The notes beneath the pieces were generated by a model. The model worked only from the letters and a program-made list of their open reading frames with translations. It had not been told where the DNA came from and did not search any database. From Patescibacteria group bacterium (GTDB taxonomy: Bacteria > Patescibacteriota > Minisyncoccia > Phycocordibacterales > JACOZG01), in NCBI GenBank assembly GCA_038065495.1, contig JBBTQW010000002.1, forward strand, positions 362,641-426,640: DNA of 64,000 nt, read 5' to 3'. A program made the position numbers and the translations under genes. Positions 47,491 to 63,030 of this stretch are shown one piece after another; positions within the stretch are counted from its first letter, which is position 1; the number at the start of each line of letters is the position of its first letter.

Positions 47491-47586
47491 CGCTTACCAG
47501 ATACGCGTCAAACTGGAAGCTCACACAATCGGGTGTGGGCTTTTCTTATGCTCAAAAATCTATGCTAGACTGGCGAAAAGATGAGT

Positions 47587-47660
47587 CCCGTTAGAAGTCA
47601 CAGGAGGCGAAGTCTGGCGGGATATTACAAACAGTAAGTAAATATTTAACTTCTAACGGG
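47587..47660 (+). promoter_or_regulatory. glyA 5' leader hairpin: perfect 12-bp inverted repeat cccgttagaagt / acttctaacggg abutting the glyA ATG
   Basis: Arms 47587-47598 and 47649-47660. 50-nt loop contains AGGAGG. Would occlude the glyA translation initiation region. Confidence 0.35.
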
Positions 47661-48863
47661 ATGAAAGATAAACAGATCGAGAAACTGATAAAACGCGAAC
47701 AAAAACGGCAGAAAAGTGTCACTAATTTGATCGCCTCGGAGAATTATGTCTCGCGTGACGTGCTAGATGCGCTGGGTTCGGAATTGAATAATAAATACGC
47801 CGAGGGTTATTCTAAGTTGAGATATTACGGTGGGAATGAAGTGGTGGATGAAGTAGAGAATCTCTGTAAAGAACGCGCTTTAAAACTTTTTAAATTAAGT
47901 GATAAGAAGTGGAATGTAAATGTGCAGGCTTTGTCTGGATCGCCGGCTAATCTCGCCGTTTATCTCGCGCTCGTGCCCTTCGACTTCGCTCAGGGCAAGC
48001 CGGGGAAAATCATGGGTATGAGCCTGGATCACGGCGGACATCTGACGCACGGGCATAGAGTGTCGGCGACTGGCAAAATCTGGCAACAAATTGCTTATGG
48101 TGTTGATCAGAAAACAGAGCAACTTAATTACGCTGAACTCATGAAAATCGCGAAGCGCGAGAAACCGGATATTATTGTGGCTGGTTATACGGCTTATCCG
48201 AGAAAGATAGATTTTAAAAAGTGGCGCGAAATTTCTGATGAAGTGGGAAGTATTCTGATGGTGGATATGTCGCACACGGCTGGGCTGGTCGCTGGCGGGG
48301 CTTATCCTTCGCCTTTCAAGTTTGCCGATGTGGTCACAACCACGACGCACAAGACTCTGCGCGGACCACGCGCGGCGCTGATTTTCTCTAAAATTGATAA
48401 GCGCGAATTGGGTAAAAAAATCGACAAAGCGGTTTTCCCCGGTTTGCAAGGCGGACCGCATGCGAATCAGATTGCTGGTGTGGCCGTGGCTCTGCAAGAA
48501 GCAATGAAGCCGGAGTTTAAGAAGTATGCCAAGCAAGTGGTGGCCAATGCGAAAATTCTCGCACAAGAGCTGAAAAAGCTTGGCTGGAGAATAGTTTCTG
48601 GTGGCACAGACTCGCATTTGATTCTCGTAGACACTTGGCTGGGTGGGGCTGGCGTGAGTGGGAAGGTGGCGAGTGATGCGCTGGAGAAAGCCGGAATTAT
48701 TGTGAACAAGAACACAATCCCAAATGACACGCGCAGTCCAATTGATCCATCGGGGATTAGACTGGGCACGGCGGCGGAGACGACGCGCGGGGCAGGAGCC
48801 AAAGAGATGAAGCAAATTGCCCAGAAAATTGCTAAGATACTGACTAAAGCAAAACATGGCTAA
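47661..48863 (+). CDS. glyA: Serine hydroxymethyltransferase
   Basis: 400 aa. SGSPANLAVYLAL...HGGHLTHGH...TTTHKTLRGPR (PLP-Lys). Contains the in-frame FDFAQGKP repeat insertion. Confidence 0.95.
   Translation: MKDKQIEKLIKREQKRQKSVTNLIASENYVSRDVLDALGSELNNKYAEGYSKLRYYGGNEVVDEVENLCKERALKLFKLSDKKWNVNVQALSGSPANLAVYLALVPFDFAQGKPGKIMGMSLDHGGHLTHGHRVSATGKIWQQIAYGVDQKTEQLNYAELMKIAKREKPDIIVAGYTAYPRKIDFKKWREISDEVGSILMVDMSHTAGLVAGGAYPSPFKFADVVTTTTHKTLRGPRAALIFSKIDKRELGKKIDKAVFPGLQGGPHANQIAGVAVALQEAMKPEFKKYAKQVVANAKILAQELKKLGWRIVSGGTDSHLILVDTWLGGAGVSGKVASDALEKAGIIVNKNTIPNDTRSPIDPSGIRLGTAAETTRGAGAKEMKQIAQKIAKILTKAKHG
47975..48003 (+). repeat. 29-nt in-frame intragenic repeat copy 1 (in glyA): gcccttcgacttcgctcagggcaagccgg
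   Basis: 27 of 29 identical to the copy at 62310-62338. Encodes PFDFAQGKP. Confidence 0.7.
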
Positions 48864-57950: not shown

Positions 57951-59627
57951 ATGTCAGAAAAAGAAAAACGAGATGCAAATTTATTAGAGAAAATCGTGTC
58001 GCTGTGCAAGCGGCGTGGTTTTATTTATCCCGGTTCGGAGATTTATGGTGGCTTGGCCGGCACTTACGATTATGGTCCACTTGGTGTGGCGCTCAAGAAT
58101 AATTTAAAAAATCTCTGGTGGAAAAACTTTGTAAGCAACAGAGAAGATATGTATGGCTTGGATGCCGCGATTATTATGAATCCCAAAACTTGGGAAGCAA
58201 GCGGTCACGTGGCTGGCTTTGCTGATCCGCTTATTGGTTGTTTAACATGTTCAGAAAAATTTAGAACGGATCATCTGATTGATACTAAGGCATTCAATGA
58301 ATATCGACTCAATTTGGTCAGAGAACATTGGAGAGAAATAATGGATGTATCAGAAAAAATGGTAACAGAAACCGAGGGTAATAAAGAATATCTTTCCAAA
58401 GTTGAGTCTGCCATTAAAGTTTTGGAGCAAAATAATTTACCCAAAGATATTGAAGAAATAATGGCCAGTGCATTGAAAGCCCATATGCTCGCTTCTGTAA
58501 GTAAGGCTAGGAAAAATCTAAAAGATCTGGTTGCAGAAATAAAACCAAGCGCTGCTCCTGAAGGATTTAGTGAGACTAAAAACTTTTCTGGTCATCTTAC
58601 TCAGCTCTTTCTTGCGGAGAATAAAATTAAATGTCCCAACTGTGGTTCCATCGAATGGAATGTTCCTTCACAATTCAACATGATGTTGAAAACAAATGTT
58701 GGTGTGGTTGATGATTTATCCTCAACCACTTACTTACGTCCAGAAACTGCTCAGGGCATGTTCGTTAATTTCAAAAATATTATCGATTCGTTCCACCCTA
58801 AACTGCCATTTGGTTTGGCGCAAATTGGTAAAGCTTTTAGAAATGAAATTGCTCCCAGAGACTTTTTATTTCGCACAAGAGAGTTTGAACAAATGGAAGT
58901 GGAATATTTTGTGAAAGCAGAAGATTGGCAGAAATATTTCGAAGAATGGCGCGTTCTAATTCAGAATTATTTTGCAGAAATTGGTTTAGATTCTAGTCAC
59001 GTGCATGAGTTAGAAGTCCCAGACGGCGATCGCGCGCATTATTCGGCGCGAACTATTGATTTCGAATTTGACTTTTCGTTTGGCAAAAAAGAATTATCAG
59101 GCTTGGCTTACAGATCTGATTACGATCTCAAGCAACATCAGGAATTTAGCAAACAAGATTTAACTTATTTTGATGAAGAAAGTAAAACCAGATTCTTGCC
59201 ACACGTAATTGAGCCTTCGCTTGGCTTAGATCGCATCTTGTTAGCTGTTTTAACAGATGCTTATACCGAAGATGAACTGGGTGGGGAAGCGCGGACTTAT
59301 CTGAAGTTAAATAAAAATATTGCGCCAGTGAGATTAGCTATTTTTCCACTGCTCAAGAATAAACCGGATTTAGTTAATAAAGCGCGCGAAGTTTATCAGA
59401 ATCTTAAAGTGCAAATGCCACATCAGACTGTCGTTTTCGATGACAATGGCAATATCGGCAAGCGTTATCGCCGGCAAGATGAGATTGGCACGCCACACTG
59501 CATTACTATTGATTTTGACACGCTCGGTGAAGGCGGTGAAGATAAAAAAGATACTGTCACGGTGCGCGATCGAGATACCGGCGAGCAGGAGAGGGTGAAA
59601 ATCTCTGAATTGACAAGTAAACTCTAG
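57951..59627 (+). CDS. glyQS: Glycyl-tRNA synthetase (alpha2 dimeric class II type)
   Basis: YPGSEIYGGLAGTYDYGPLG...class II motifs. 558 aa. Confidence 0.9.
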   Translation: MSEKEKRDANLLEKIVSLCKRRGFIYPGSEIYGGLAGTYDYGPLGVALKNNLKNLWWKNFVSNREDMYGLDAAIIMNPKTWEASGHVAGFADPLIGCLTCSEKFRTDHLIDTKAFNEYRLNLVREHWREIMDVSEKMVTETEGNKEYLSKVESAIKVLEQNNLPKDIEEIMASALKAHMLASVSKARKNLKDLVAEIKPSAAPEGFSETKNFSGHLTQLFLAENKIKCPNCGSIEWNVPSQFNMMLKTNVGVVDDLSSTTYLRPETAQGMFVNFKNIIDSFHPKLPFGLAQIGKAFRNEIAPRDFLFRTREFEQMEVEYFVKAEDWQKYFEEWRVLIQNYFAEIGLDSSHVHELEVPDGDRAHYSARTIDFEFDFSFGKKELSGLAYRSDYDLKQHQEFSKQDLTYFDEESKTRFLPHVIEPSLGLDRILLAVLTDAYTEDELGGEARTYLKLNKNIAPVRLAIFPLLKNKPDLVNKAREVYQNLKVQMPHQTVVFDDNGNIGKRYRRQDEIGTPHCITIDFDTLGEGGEDKKDTVTVRDRDTGEQERVKISELTSKL

Positions 59628-59708
59628 TTTGCTAAAAATTCGCTAGTCGCGTCCGGACGTTCCGTGACGCAAGAGTACCTTACACACATCGGCAACGGAG
59701 GAGTCTCT

Positions 59709-60152
59709 ATGGCTATTGCTCTCGGTCGTAACTTTAAGTTAGTTGATCCCACTCTGATGACAAAGCTGAGGGCAGATCCCAGTCGCGTGCCCAAGGATTG
59801 GGGAGAACCGCGGAAACCTGGTTCTCCAGACACCGTCTACATTTCTCGAGAGTTAATCGCGGATGGACATGGTGGATTCACAATTCTCGGGTTATGGCAC
59901 GACGGGACGCACTGGCGCAAGATTGATTATCTCGAGATTTTTGCGGACAGGGCCTTCACAGAACCACCGGTTTCCGCGCCAGCGCAAGTCGTTAACCCAG
60001 TCGCCAACGTGGATCCGGCTCACGCTGAGCCGCCCAAGAAGGCAAAGGCGAAGGCAAAGAAGGGAGATAGTGATGTTATCATCTCTCTGGAACCTGAACC
60101 TGAAGCTCTGACGAAAAAAGAAAAGCCGGCTCTGGCCGGCGCCCCCGCCTAG
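59709..60152 (+). CDS. Hypothetical protein with a Lys/Ala/Pro-rich C-terminal tail
   Basis: GGAGG RBS before the internal Met MAIALGRNF. The track ORF begins at 59664. Confidence 0.4.
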   Translation: MAIALGRNFKLVDPTLMTKLRADPSRVPKDWGEPRKPGSPDTVYISRELIADGHGGFTILGLWHDGTHWRKIDYLEIFADRAFTEPPVSAPAQVVNPVANVDPAHAEPPKKAKAKAKKGDSDVIISLEPEPEALTKKEKPALAGAPA

Positions 60153-60228
60153 GGGGTATTTTTATTTGCTAAAAACGGCCTTAATTAGCCATATCTTGGC
60201 AAAAACACGCTAAAAACTAGACAGAATA

Positions 60229-60255
60229 CTTGACAAATAAACAAGCTTGTGATAG
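60229..60255 (+). promoter_or_regulatory. Promoter TTGACA-N15-TGtGATAGG (weak -10)
   Basis: cTTGACAaataaacaagctTGTGATAGGcttata. Confidence 0.35.
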
Positions 60256-60261
60256 GCTTAT

Positions 60262-60487
60262 AACGGAAGGCTGGATGTGGACATCTGGCCGAAGTGGACC
60301 CCAAAAGTGGAAGGATCGTGTCATGGGAAGAATCATTTGTTGGCTCACGGACTCTCTCACGCTGGATGAGTTGCGAGATCGGCAAGAAGTCTGTGCGTGG
60401 TAAGTGCTTTCCGGAGAGGAAGCGAGAGAAGTGAGAAAGAAGTAACAATCCCGTCGTGCCAAGCGCATGACGGGATTTCTGTTTCTT
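60262..60487 (+). ncRNA. Promoter-to-terminator transcript of about 225 nt upstream of the AI-2E transporter gene. Candidate structured leader/ncRNA, or mRNA for a 41-aa peptide
   Basis: 5' hairpin GGCUGGAUGU-gg-ACAUCUGGCC. Purine-rich middle. Terminator cccgtcgtg-ccaagcg-catgacggg plus AUUUCUGUUUCUU (60450-60487). Possible small ORF ATG 60273 (MWTSGRSGPQKWKDRVMGRIICWLTDSLTLDELRDRQEVCAW) with a GGAAGG SD. Confidence 0.35.
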
Positions 60488-60521
60488 GGCAAAAGATTTT
60501 TTTAATAGTAGAATCAAGCTA

Positions 60522-61592
60522 ATGGCCGACAATGGCAAAACTCTCAATATTGAGGTGACCGTAGGCACAGTGCTCAAGATTATCTTGGTGCTAGCCGGCG
60601 TTTTTCTCTTGTATTATTTATTTGATCTGGTCCTCGTCATTCTGCTTTCAATCGTCATTGCGTCTTCCGTTGAGCCAGCTACGCGCTCGCTGGCGCGCTA
60701 TCGCGTACCAAGAGTTTTGTCGGTGTTGTTTGTGTATGTTTTTGCTTTCTTTATCTTTGCCGTTTTGATTCCCGTTTTCGTCTTCCCAATCTTCAGCGAT
60801 TTGTCTGACTTAACAGCCACTTTGCCGGCCAGGATTACGAGCTTGCCGTTCTTCTCGCAAGCGCCACCACTCTTGGTGGCCTTTACTGGCAAGCTTTCTG
60901 TGTCTGACATCGTCTCCGGCTTGAGTACCGGCCTTGCGGCAATTCCCCATGGCATTACCGAGACAGCCAGTGTGGTTTTCAATAGTTTGTTTAAATTAAT
61001 TCTGGTAATCGTCATTTCGTTTTATCTGGCTGTACAGCCCAAAGGTATTGAGAGTTTCTTGCGCCTCGTCACGCCAATCCCGCGAGAGCGTTATGTGTTG
61101 GATCTGTGGCAACGTGTCCAGCAGAAGATCGGCATGTGGATGCAAGGTCAGCTCTTGCTCGGCCTCATCATGGGCGTGCTCGTCTTCTTGGGCTTGAGCA
61201 TTTTGCAAGTAGAGCATGCGCTCTTGCTCGCGCTCTTGGCTGCGCTTTTCGAGATTATTCCGTTCTTCGGGCCGGTACTTGCGGCAGTGCCGGCGGTTTT
61301 GCTCGCCTTTAGCTCCAGCCCCACGCTCGGCTTTATGGTTATCGGTCTCTATATCATCATGCAGCAATTTGAGAATCACTTGATTTATCCACTCGTCGTG
61401 CGCAAGATTGTGGGCGTGCCGCCACTACTCGTGATTTTGTCGTTGATTATCGGCGCGCAATTGGCCGGCTTTATGGGCCTCATTCTCGCTGTGCCGGTAG
61501 CGACGATCTTGATGGAAATGTTGTCAGATTTTGAGAAGAGCAAATATCTCTTTGAGAAAGTGGAAGAAAAAGTGGAACAAGCGAATGCCTAA
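60522..61592 (+). CDS. AI-2E family transporter (UPF0118/PerM-like permease)
   Basis: About 356 aa, 7-8 TM helices. Conserved C-terminal region LIYPLVVRKIVGVPPLLVILSLIIGAQLAGFMGLILAVPVA. Confidence 0.8.
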   Translation: MADNGKTLNIEVTVGTVLKIILVLAGVFLLYYLFDLVLVILLSIVIASSVEPATRSLARYRVPRVLSVLFVYVFAFFIFAVLIPVFVFPIFSDLSDLTATLPARITSLPFFSQAPPLLVAFTGKLSVSDIVSGLSTGLAAIPHGITETASVVFNSLFKLILVIVISFYLAVQPKGIESFLRLVTPIPRERYVLDLWQRVQQKIGMWMQGQLLLGLIMGVLVFLGLSILQVEHALLLALLAALFEIIPFFGPVLAAVPAVLLAFSSSPTLGFMVIGLYIIMQQFENHLIYPLVVRKIVGVPPLLVILSLIIGAQLAGFMGLILAVPVATILMEMLSDFEKSKYLFEKVEEKVEQANA

Positions 61593-63030
61593 ACGGTTCT
61601 ATCTCACTACCACGTTGCCTTATGTTAACGCCGATCCTCACATCGGCTTTGCTTTAGAAATTATCCAGGCGGATATCATTGCGCGTTATCGCGAGCTACT
61701 GGGCGAAGAAGTTTTCTTCAACACCGGCACTGATGAGCACGGTTTGAAAATTTACAGGAAGGCGCAAGAATTAAATCGCGGCCCGCAAGAATATGTGGAT
61801 GAGTTTGCAAGCAAGTTCAAGAATTTGCAAAATATTTTGGGTCTGAGTGAGAAGTTAAATTTTATCCGGACAACCAATCCTGAACACAAAAAATCAGCGC
61901 AGAAATTCTGGGAAATTTGTCAGACTAATGGTTTTATTTACAAAAAAGATTATCAAGTCAAGTATTGCGTGGGTTGCGAACTGGAGAAAACTGATTCTGA
62001 ACTAGAAAATAATAAATGCGCGATTCATCCAAACTTAGAAATAGAATTAATTTCTGAAGAGAATTACTTTTTTAAATTTTCTAGTTTTCAGGAGAAATTA
62101 CTAGATTTATATAATAAAAATCCGGACTTTGTTATTCCAAATTCGCGTCTAAACGAAATAAAAAGTTTTGTGGCGCGGGGCTTAGAAGATTTCTCTATCT
62201 CAAGACTGAAAAATAAAATGCCTTGGGGCGTGGCCGTGCCGGGCGATCCCGAACACGTGATGTATGTGTGGTTCGACGCGCTGGTGAACTACATTTCTTG
62301 TCTCGGCTGGCCCTTCGACTCCGCTCAGGACAAGCCGGATAATTTTGTAAAGTTCTGGCCGGGCGTTCAATTTGCTGGCAAAGATAATCTGCGCCAGCAA
62401 GCGGCGATGTGGCAGGCGATGTTGCTCGCGGCCGGATTGCCAAACTCGAAACAGATTATCATCCACGGCTTCATCACCTCAGCTGGCCAGAAGATGAGCA
62501 AAAGTTTGGGGAATGTTATCGATCCGGTGAAATTAGTAGCAGAATATGGCACGGATGCTCTGCGCTATTATCTCGCGCGGCATGTGCAGCCGTTTGAAGA
62601 TAGTGATTTCACGCTAGAAAAGTTCAAAGAAGCTTACAATGCTAATCTCGCGAATGGCTTGGGAAATTTAGTGAGCCGTGTGATGAAGATGGCGACGGAT
62701 AATTTAGAAAAACCGGTAGAAATTAACTGGCGAAATATTTCTGACTTTGCTGATCTCACAAAATATTTAAATAATTACGAATATAGTCAGGCGCTAGATG
62801 AGATCTGGAAGCACATCGCCAAGCATGACGAATATATTCAAGAAACGAAGCCGTTTAGTTTGATCAAAACTGATCCAGATCAAGCGCGAGAAATTATTGC
62901 TAAACTGGTGCAAGGTTTGGCAGATTTGGCCGTTTGCTTAGAACCAATCATGCCCTCAACTTCGGCAAAAATAAAACAAGCAGTTCAAGGAAATAAAATG
63001 CCGGAGGCGCTCTTTCCAAGAAAAGAATAA
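61585..63030 (+). CDS. metG: Methionyl-tRNA synthetase (short form, no C-terminal Trbp111 domain)
   Basis: TTTLPYVNADPHIGFALE (HIGH-type). KMSKSLGNVIDP. Contains the in-frame PFDSAQDKP repeat insertion. Confidence 0.9.
   Translation: MPKRFYLTTTLPYVNADPHIGFALEIIQADIIARYRELLGEEVFFNTGTDEHGLKIYRKAQELNRGPQEYVDEFASKFKNLQNILGLSEKLNFIRTTNPEHKKSAQKFWEICQTNGFIYKKDYQVKYCVGCELEKTDSELENNKCAIHPNLEIELISEENYFFKFSSFQEKLLDLYNKNPDFVIPNSRLNEIKSFVARGLEDFSISRLKNKMPWGVAVPGDPEHVMYVWFDALVNYISCLGWPFDSAQDKPDNFVKFWPGVQFAGKDNLRQQAAMWQAMLLAAGLPNSKQIIIHGFITSAGQKMSKSLGNVIDPVKLVAEYGTDALRYYLARHVQPFEDSDFTLEKFKEAYNANLANGLGNLVSRVMKMATDNLEKPVEINWRNISDFADLTKYLNNYEYSQALDEIWKHIAKHDEYIQETKPFSLIKTDPDQAREIIAKLVQGLADLAVCLEPIMPSTSAKIKQAVQGNKMPEALFPRKE
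62310..62338 (+). repeat. 29-nt in-frame intragenic repeat copy 2 (in metG): gcccttcgactccgctcaggacaagccgg
   Basis: Encodes PFDSAQDKP within a variable surface linker of MetRS. Confidence 0.7.

Follow-up and report, generated by a model that had tools for sequence, protein, structure and literature searches.

The unit of about 225 nt that runs from promoter to terminator directly upstream of an AI-2E transporter gene (60229-60521) is most probably a separate, previously unannotated small-protein gene, which is restricted to one clade and flanked by conserved untranslated regions (UTRs). Positions are those of the window, i.e. the whole stretch of 64,000 nt of DNA that was analysed, the source genome of which has been placed in the Patescibacteria. 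A preliminary description of the same DNA had left three readings side by side: a riboswitch-like leader of the transporter gene, a small RNA (sRNA) or a peptide gene. The features on which these were based (TTGACA promoter, 5' hairpin, purine-rich tract, terminator and AI-2E transporter) are all present in the sequence, and the peptide gene is the reading that is retained here, albeit with a different start codon.

The gene order in this part of the window is GlyRS, an orphan ORF of 162 aa, the unit, the AI-2E transporter (PF01594, E = 7.8e-54), MetRS and a Nudix gene. The ATG of the transporter is at 60522, and the terminator of the unit ends approximately 33 nt short of it. There is a single copy of the unit per locus, and no second copy is found elsewhere in the window. 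The contigs of relatives were reached through homologues of the transporter, and homologous units were located on them by nhmmer and inspection. Seven lineages, all from one Patescibacteria (CPR) clade and the only ones in the alignment, carry the unit, and ten related loci were compared. The features of the unit are listed in Table 1.

Table 1. Positions and conservation of the features of the unit and of its borders in the window.
Feature	Position	Strand	Conservation or basis
Conserved block upstream of promoter, AAAAACGGCC..GCCATATCTTGGC	60171..60200	+	alignable in L010-L014 and L023
-35 hexamer TTGACA of putative small-gene promoter	60230..60235	+	invariant in 10/10 homologues
Extended -10 TGaTAGGCT, 17 nt past the -35	60250..60258	+	spacing and TANNNT conserved
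GAAGG at putative 5' end of transcript	60266..60270	+	invariant throughout alignments A4 and A7
P1, 5'-terminal hairpin GGCUGGAUGUGGACAUCUGGCC, 8 conserved pairs	60269..60290	+	covariation
Shine-Dalgarno (SD) sequence GGAAGGA, 7 nt ahead of ATG	60309..60315	+	SD-like block in all homologues
Small ORF, 26 codons plus TAA, predicted product MGRIICWLTDSLTLDELRDRQEVCAW	60323..60403	+	frame open in 7 lineages
P2 hairpin GCUUUCC-GGAGA-GGAAGC, from 2 nt past stop codon	60406..60423	+	near-invariant motif
Polypurine spacer GAGAGAAGUGAGAAAGAAGUAAC	60424..60446	+	purine-rich in most homologues; sequence and length vary
Intrinsic terminator, 13-pair stem (60447-60477) and T-rich tail TCTGTTTCTT	60447..60488	+	scanner call
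Putative promoter of transporter, TTGGCA-17-TAGAAT, 7 nt ahead of ATG 60522	60486..60514	+	scanner, 10/12 matches; outside the small gene

The -10 hexamer of the unit is TAGGCT (60253-60258), with an upstream TG at 60250-60251. All 10 homologues retain TTGACA, the 17-nt spacer and a TANNNT -10 element, which takes the forms TAGGCT, TAAGAT, TATACT and TAGCAT and usually follows a TG. The promoter was missed by a consensus scanner, since only 3 of the 6 bases of its -10 agree with TATAAT. Within the spacer there is a perfect 10-nt palindrome (ACAAGCTTGT, 60241-60250), which is partially conserved in relatives (ACAAGCTTAT in L013) and may be an operator or a product of chance.

The conserved block upstream of the promoter follows GlyRS, or a gene inserted behind GlyRS, in all six loci in which it can be aligned. 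In L011 it takes the form of a clean hairpin with a T-run behind it, and the block is probably a relic of the GlyRS terminator. GlyRS itself (57951-59627) has 558 aa in the window and 401-437 aa in relatives; an in-frame insert (58232-58728; ~430-500 nt, 34-39% GC) separates the two halves of the zinc-knuckle region, where L010 has only 68 nt. The orphan ORF (59664-60152; 162 aa, or 147 aa from ATG 59709) is inserted between GlyRS and the putative relic terminator block. It has a lysine/alanine-rich tail and its own terminator (60141-60157), no match in Pfam, and an identical sequence as its sole database match (cluster P0121). On the L011 contig a 144-aa ORF is found at the same position, and in L023 there is a methyltransferase at the equivalent place.

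Coding evidence and the peptide family

In all homologues (10 sequences) an SD-like purine block is located 6-8 nt ahead of an aligned, invariant ATG; the blocks seen are GGAAGGA, GAAAGGA, AAGGAG, GAAGGAG, AGAGGAG and CAGGAGA. The aligned frame is 26-43 codons long in the seven lineages, with a stop codon -1 to +5 nt from the P2 motif. Frame 0 is free of stops in 9 of 9 sequences and frames +1 and +2 carry stops; frame 0 is also open in L026. For the six independent lineages tested, the joint probability of an open frame arising by chance is ~5e-4. ORFs of 32-43 aa were predicted independently by gene callers in six of the loci (L012, L014, L020, L023, L025 and L026).

The peptides share the core L-T-(L/V)-D-(E/D)-(I/L/V)-R-(D/E)-x-A, the codons of which (columns 11-20 of the codon alignment) differ mostly synonymously. 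All four Thr codons (ACG, ACT, ACC or ACA) are used for the conserved Thr; the conserved Leu is encoded by CTG, CTT, CTC or TTG, Asp by GAT or GAC, Arg by CGA, CGG, CGC or AGA, and Ala by GCG, GCC or GCT. This pattern is a signature of translation and not of RNA pairing.

The start codon proposed in the preliminary description had to be replaced. It had reported a 41-aa ORF with an ATG at 60273. An ORF is present there, with an in-frame ATG at 60275 (inside the 5' hairpin) and 42 codons, but this start is not conserved: L011 has ATC in its place, a stop separates it from the main frame in L012, and in L013 it belongs to another frame. The conserved start is instead the ATG at 60323, preceded by the second SD and giving a product of 26 aa. 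Translation of P2 by stop-codon read-through was rejected as well, the motif being found in different frames in L013, L020 and L025.

With 26 aa, the window product is the shortest of the family, which has 32-43 aa in related lineages. In its C-terminal third, 7 of 10 residues differ from those of L010 and the flanks are identical; this segment is within a divergent patch of a mosaic. The shortening and C-terminal divergence may reflect relaxed constraint in the window lineage. The mosaic was observed between 58729 and 62697 in comparison with L010, which has an identical transporter protein. Stretches of 100% identity alternate with patches of 60-120 nt at 62-78% identity (e.g., 59389-59448, 60349-60468, 62089-62148 and 62269-62328), which suggests frequent inter-strain recombination or a chimeric assembly. 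A diversity-generating retroelement was considered as the cause of the differences from L010 and discarded; the differences are not adenine-specific, and the similar patches along the whole locus point to mosaic recombination.

The peptides are acidic and amphipathic. For a 39-aa homologue (P0122), AlphaFold2 predicted three helices (residues 6-9, 12-20 and 24-37), the two long ones forming a hairpin (mean pLDDT 80.8). The longer homologues are predicted to be helical hairpins of this kind, and the window version retains only the first (N-terminal), conserved helix. The mini-protein, we infer, most likely acts by binding another macromolecule.

The search for peptide homologues that the preliminary description had called for recovered members of the clade, and profile searches found no relatives outside it. 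A word-indexed peptide profile search returned the three known peptides and two weak chance matches (P0125, P0126) only; in an exhaustive HMMER search these three were joined by just one repeat-driven artefact (P0127). No family member has a Pfam match at E <= 10. Nothing was found for the family in NCBIfam or PHROGs, and nothing significant by Foldseek against the PDB or by profile and sequence searches of the PDB. The peptides contain the pattern A-x-x-G-x-x-x-A-x-x-L-x-x-x-G, which we take to resemble half of a Sel1-like repeat; assignment to a single Sel1-like/TPR repeat was rejected, given that neither Pfam (none at E <= 10) nor the PDB profile and Foldseek searches (none significant) provided profile support.

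Conserved RNA elements and proposed working of the gene

Mean pairwise nucleotide identity between lineages is 72% in the promoter, 64% in the 5' UTR, 53% in the ORF, 67% in the first 25 nt after the stop codon (3' UTR) and 50% in the remainder through the terminator. Because the UTRs surpass the ORF in nucleotide conservation, the RNA itself may have a role. The 233-nt RNA of the unit folds better than 200 of 200 shuffled sequences (z = -2.85).

P1 begins inside the GAAGG motif, which itself begins 8-9 nt downstream of the -10 element. Over the 8 pairs of P1, 98.6% of cells are paired, compared with 12-54% when the partners are slid, and compensatory double changes occur at three pairs (with L026 included). 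The hairpin at the stop codon, P2 (GCUUUCCGG), is almost invariant. Its motif (GCTTTCCGG) is exact in 8 of 10 sequences, and L024 and L026 have one C-to-T change each, by which the pair is kept as U-G. P2 adjoins the stop codon, and all homologues tested can form it (-3.2 to -13.2 kcal/mol). It is followed by purine-rich sequence, the entire tract spanning 60413-60446. A strong hairpin with a T-run terminates the unit in every homologue, with unrelated sequences; when the window is compared with L010, pairing in the stem is preserved through one double compensatory change and three one-sided ones. The central 80-130 nt are of variable length and have no conserved fold.

A long-range pairing of the 5' GAAGG, or of the SD, with GCUUUCC was also considered. 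Five or six pairs could form, but neither side varies among the sequences, and the flanking position is G in 4 and A in 5 sequences opposite an invariant C. This position does not covary, and the pairing is regarded as unsupported.

From these elements a mode of operation can be proposed. The near-consensus sigma-70-type promoter (TTGACA, 17 nt, TGnTAGGCT) would start the RNA at approximately 60265, as judged from promoter geometry. Only 3-4 unpaired purines (of GAAGG) would then precede the 5'-terminal P1. In other bacteria, 5' stem-loops and polypurine stabilisers shield mRNA from 5'-end-dependent decay, and the 5' end with P1 might protect this mRNA in the same way. The strong SD (GGAAGGA) would drive translation from ATG 60323, an unusual arrangement where most genes look leaderless. 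At the stop codon, a terminating ribosome would have to open the adjoining P2. The intrinsic terminator would end the transcript and insulate the promoter of the transporter directly downstream, which appears to yield a leaderless mRNA. So read, the unit is most probably transcribed on its own and carries a single gene, the product of which is a very small acidic protein.

Distribution and relation to the transporter gene

The unit is present at loci where the transporter is 100% (L010), 95% (L011), 83% (L012, and L024 with a partial unit), 80% (L013, of which L018 is a duplicate, and L014), 69-70% (L020, L021 and L025) or 69% (L023 and L026) identical to that of the window. It was not found in L015 and L016, where the transporter is 73% identical and the gap between GlyRS and transporter is 41 nt. 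Similarity to the unit was also not found in nine species-level relatives (L001-L009) with transporters of 45-61% identity. In these, the transporter is located behind GlyRS or an M16 peptidase, usually by <200 nt (~350 nt in L006 and L008). An M16 peptidase is found between GlyRS and transporter in L001, L005, L009 and L014; in L014 it is intact, and the unit lies between it and GlyRS. In L013 the unit is 1.2 kb upstream of the transporter, ahead of the apparent start of an M16 peptidase. A metagenome pattern scan for more homologues gave only the L013 duplicate and two chance matches. Based on its presence or absence and its neighbours across these loci, the unit follows the chromosomal position after GlyRS and not the transporter.

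Some of the same contigs share a second short element with the window. It comprises ~80 nt (47582-47663) between a leaderless-type promoter with ATG (47582) and the ATG (47661) of a 400-aa ORF, and is bounded by inverted repeats (TCCCGTTAGAAG / CTTCTAACGGGA); its predicted fold is a long hairpin (-24.2 kcal/mol, z = -3.8), and it contains a short Arg-rich ORF (MSPVRSHRRRSLAGYYKQ in the window, MNPVRSCRRRSSAGDIIKSK in L013). The same element is found in L013 (1392-1475, ahead of the M16 peptidase) and, in a longer form, in L008 (~2610-2895) and in L006 upstream of 3223, ahead of the AI-2E transporter. It has no Rfam match; a MITE-like insertion at start codons and a leader of the uORF type are both conceivable.

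The transporter promoters of the related loci have a common layout (T(T)GGACA or TTGGCA, 17 nt, TAGAAT or TAGTAT). Whether transporter or M16 peptidase, the gene downstream of the unit always has its own promoter-like element, 7-9 nt ahead of an ATG that lacks an SD. In a crude first-ATG analysis of the long ORFs of the window, 23 of 53 have TAnnnT 5-16 nt ahead of the ATG and no SD, and 5 of 53 have an SD. Leaderless expression seems to prevail in this Patescibacteria genome; a literature search on leaderless mRNA in CPR found nothing directly useful. Because most genes look leaderless, a promoter followed by a terminator ahead of a gene is, in these genomes, less likely to be a cis-regulatory leader than a small gene in its own right. 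The SD-less ATG of the transporter would be internal on a read-through transcript and poorly placed for initiation. Judged by sequence, the transporter is served by a promoter of its own and is not under the control of the unit.

Two readings would nevertheless couple the unit to the genes downstream. One is a metabolite-sensing riboswitch that controls the AI-2E transporter by transcription termination. It agrees with the terminator between promoter and transporter, with the well-folded RNA (z = -2.85) and with a weak likeness to a PyrR binding site (UCCGGAGAGG), which was the best result of a permissive Rfam scan (E <= 10) of 60100-60600. However, that match has 19.3 bits (E = 3.1) against a gathering score of 54 and is regarded as a sub-threshold coincidence; cmscan against Rfam returned only tRNAs for the whole window, in accordance with the preliminary description, which had recognized no known riboswitch class in the unit. 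The would-be aptamer region is coding and structurally unconserved: only the 8-pair P1 covaries, and the centre is a coding frame of variable length. There is no consistent link to a regulated gene family either, as the unit is absent from the orthologous transporter loci L001-L009, L015 and L016, precedes an M16 peptidase in L013 and L014, and is followed by a transporter with its own promoter. A literature search for an AI-2E-linked riboswitch found none. The preliminary description had named, as observations that would speak against its leader, a lack of conservation upstream of orthologous transporters and of an alternative pairing that competes with the terminator. Since the unit is conserved in one narrow clade only and no competing pairing is conserved among nine homologues, its riboswitch reading is contradicted in its own terms, and we give the riboswitch next to no chance. 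The other reading is a leader-peptide attenuator, in which translation of the short ORF sets terminator formation and so tunes read-through into the M16, AI-2E or MetRS genes. Promoter, short ORF, terminator and same-strand genes succeed one another as in classical attenuators, the order of ORF (60323-60403) and terminator (60447-60488) is common to all homologues, and with the stop codon -1 to +5 nt from P2 a ribosome that terminates there would alter the RNA structure immediately ahead of the terminator. Against this, truncated transcripts of nine homologues were folded with the 3' arm of the terminator withheld, and no conserved antiterminator was found; the partner taken up by the 5' arm differs from lineage to lineage and is non-homologous. 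A run of regulatory codons is absent from the peptide, the conserved residues of which are mid-peptide, 10-20 codons ahead of the stop. Furthermore, the downstream gene varies (M16 peptidase in L013 and L014, transporter elsewhere), and its separate, conserved promoter-like element 7-9 nt from an SD-less ATG seems ill-suited to translation after read-through. Attenuation is accordingly rated as quite improbable.

The remaining alternatives concern the RNA and the origin of the unit. An sRNA, noncoding or dual-function, might act via P1, the hairpin at the stop codon and the polypurine tract, with the ORF secondary or incidental. The independent promoter-to-terminator unit of ~225 nt, which stood up from the earlier sRNA reading, is consistent with this, as are RNA motifs that are better conserved than the peptide, including the covarying P1 and a P2 5' arm that is almost invariant although the ORFs share only ~53% nucleotide identity. 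What did not stand up is the absence of a coding signal: a frame that stays open, an SD and ATG that are conserved and codons that change synonymously are hard to explain without translation. In addition, the central 80-130 nt lack a conserved fold and vary in length, and there is no match to an Rfam family. ARAGORN found no tRNA or tmRNA, and SRP RNA, 6S RNA, RNase P RNA and T-box motifs, which were compared by eye, were dropped once the coding signal appeared. An sRNA with a secondary or incidental ORF is hence unlikely, as is a purely noncoding one. There is a small but real chance of a dual-function, clade-specific RNA, in which the stop-codon hairpin and the SD-like polypurine tract constitute a translation-coupled switch or a binding platform; it could, for example, titrate 30S subunits or an RNA-binding protein, or allow autoregulation by the peptide. 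If true, this would account for UTRs that are better conserved than the coding sequence. Finally, the unit might be a decaying remnant without present function, e.g. of an M16 peptidase gene such as relatives have at this position. This is suggested by the M16 peptidase between GlyRS and transporter in four of them and by the window peptide, which is the shortest of its family and diverging quickly. Yet tblastn of the M16 peptidase against the window gave nothing at the unit (best match anywhere E = 0.24), the unit coexists with an intact M16 gene in L014, and every element from promoter, SD and ATG to P1, P2 and terminator is conserved and shows no damage, which makes decay very improbable.

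Comparison with known systems

With the small-protein gene as the preferred reading, a false riboswitch candidate is removed, and a new unannotated small-protein family is gained together with its regulatory signals, in an uncultured lineage with a reduced genome where most small genes are invisible to annotation. For the study of translation and mRNA decay in Patescibacteria, the nearly invariant P2 hairpin offers a modest lead.

With riboswitches that act by termination the unit shares its layout upstream of a transporter gene, namely promoter, structured RNA and terminator. The unit differs in that it has no aptamer match or switching helix, a coding centre, and no linkage to the transporter across genomes. 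Attenuators of the trpL, hisL and pheL type also have a short ORF and then an intrinsic terminator upstream of same-strand genes, whereas the unit lacks a conserved antiterminator, a pause helix and a regulatory codon run, and its downstream gene has its own promoter. The mRNAs of type I toxin-antitoxin systems are similar in carrying a small ORF in a structured mRNA with a 5' hairpin and SD-like and anti-SD-like elements. Their toxins are hydrophobic membrane peptides; in contrast, the peptides of the unit are acidic, amphipathic and predicted to be soluble, and no antisense (minus-strand) promoter-like site was found in 60229-60521.

Among 5' mRNA stabilisers, the ompA type consists of a 5'-terminal stem-loop, and Bacillus has polypurine or STAB-SD elements. 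The unit is comparable in that a conserved hairpin is positioned <=~4 nt from the putative 5' end, behind the invariant, SD-like GAAGG; in contrast to the ompA and STAB-SD elements, its stabilising role is putative, and its 5' end is placed from promoter geometry only.

Finally, the unit can be compared with stand-alone bacterial small proteins of <=50 aa. One of these, Sda of Bacillus subtilis, is a helical hairpin of 46 aa that inhibits a kinase, and it is mentioned as an analogy only. The peptide of the unit has no sequence, family or fold relationship with known small proteins and occurs in one Patescibacteria clade only. What it has in common with them is the organization as a single gene with its own promoter, SD and terminator, and a product (here a soluble helical hairpin of ~30-40 aa, as predicted) of the kind that is missed or inconsistently annotated.
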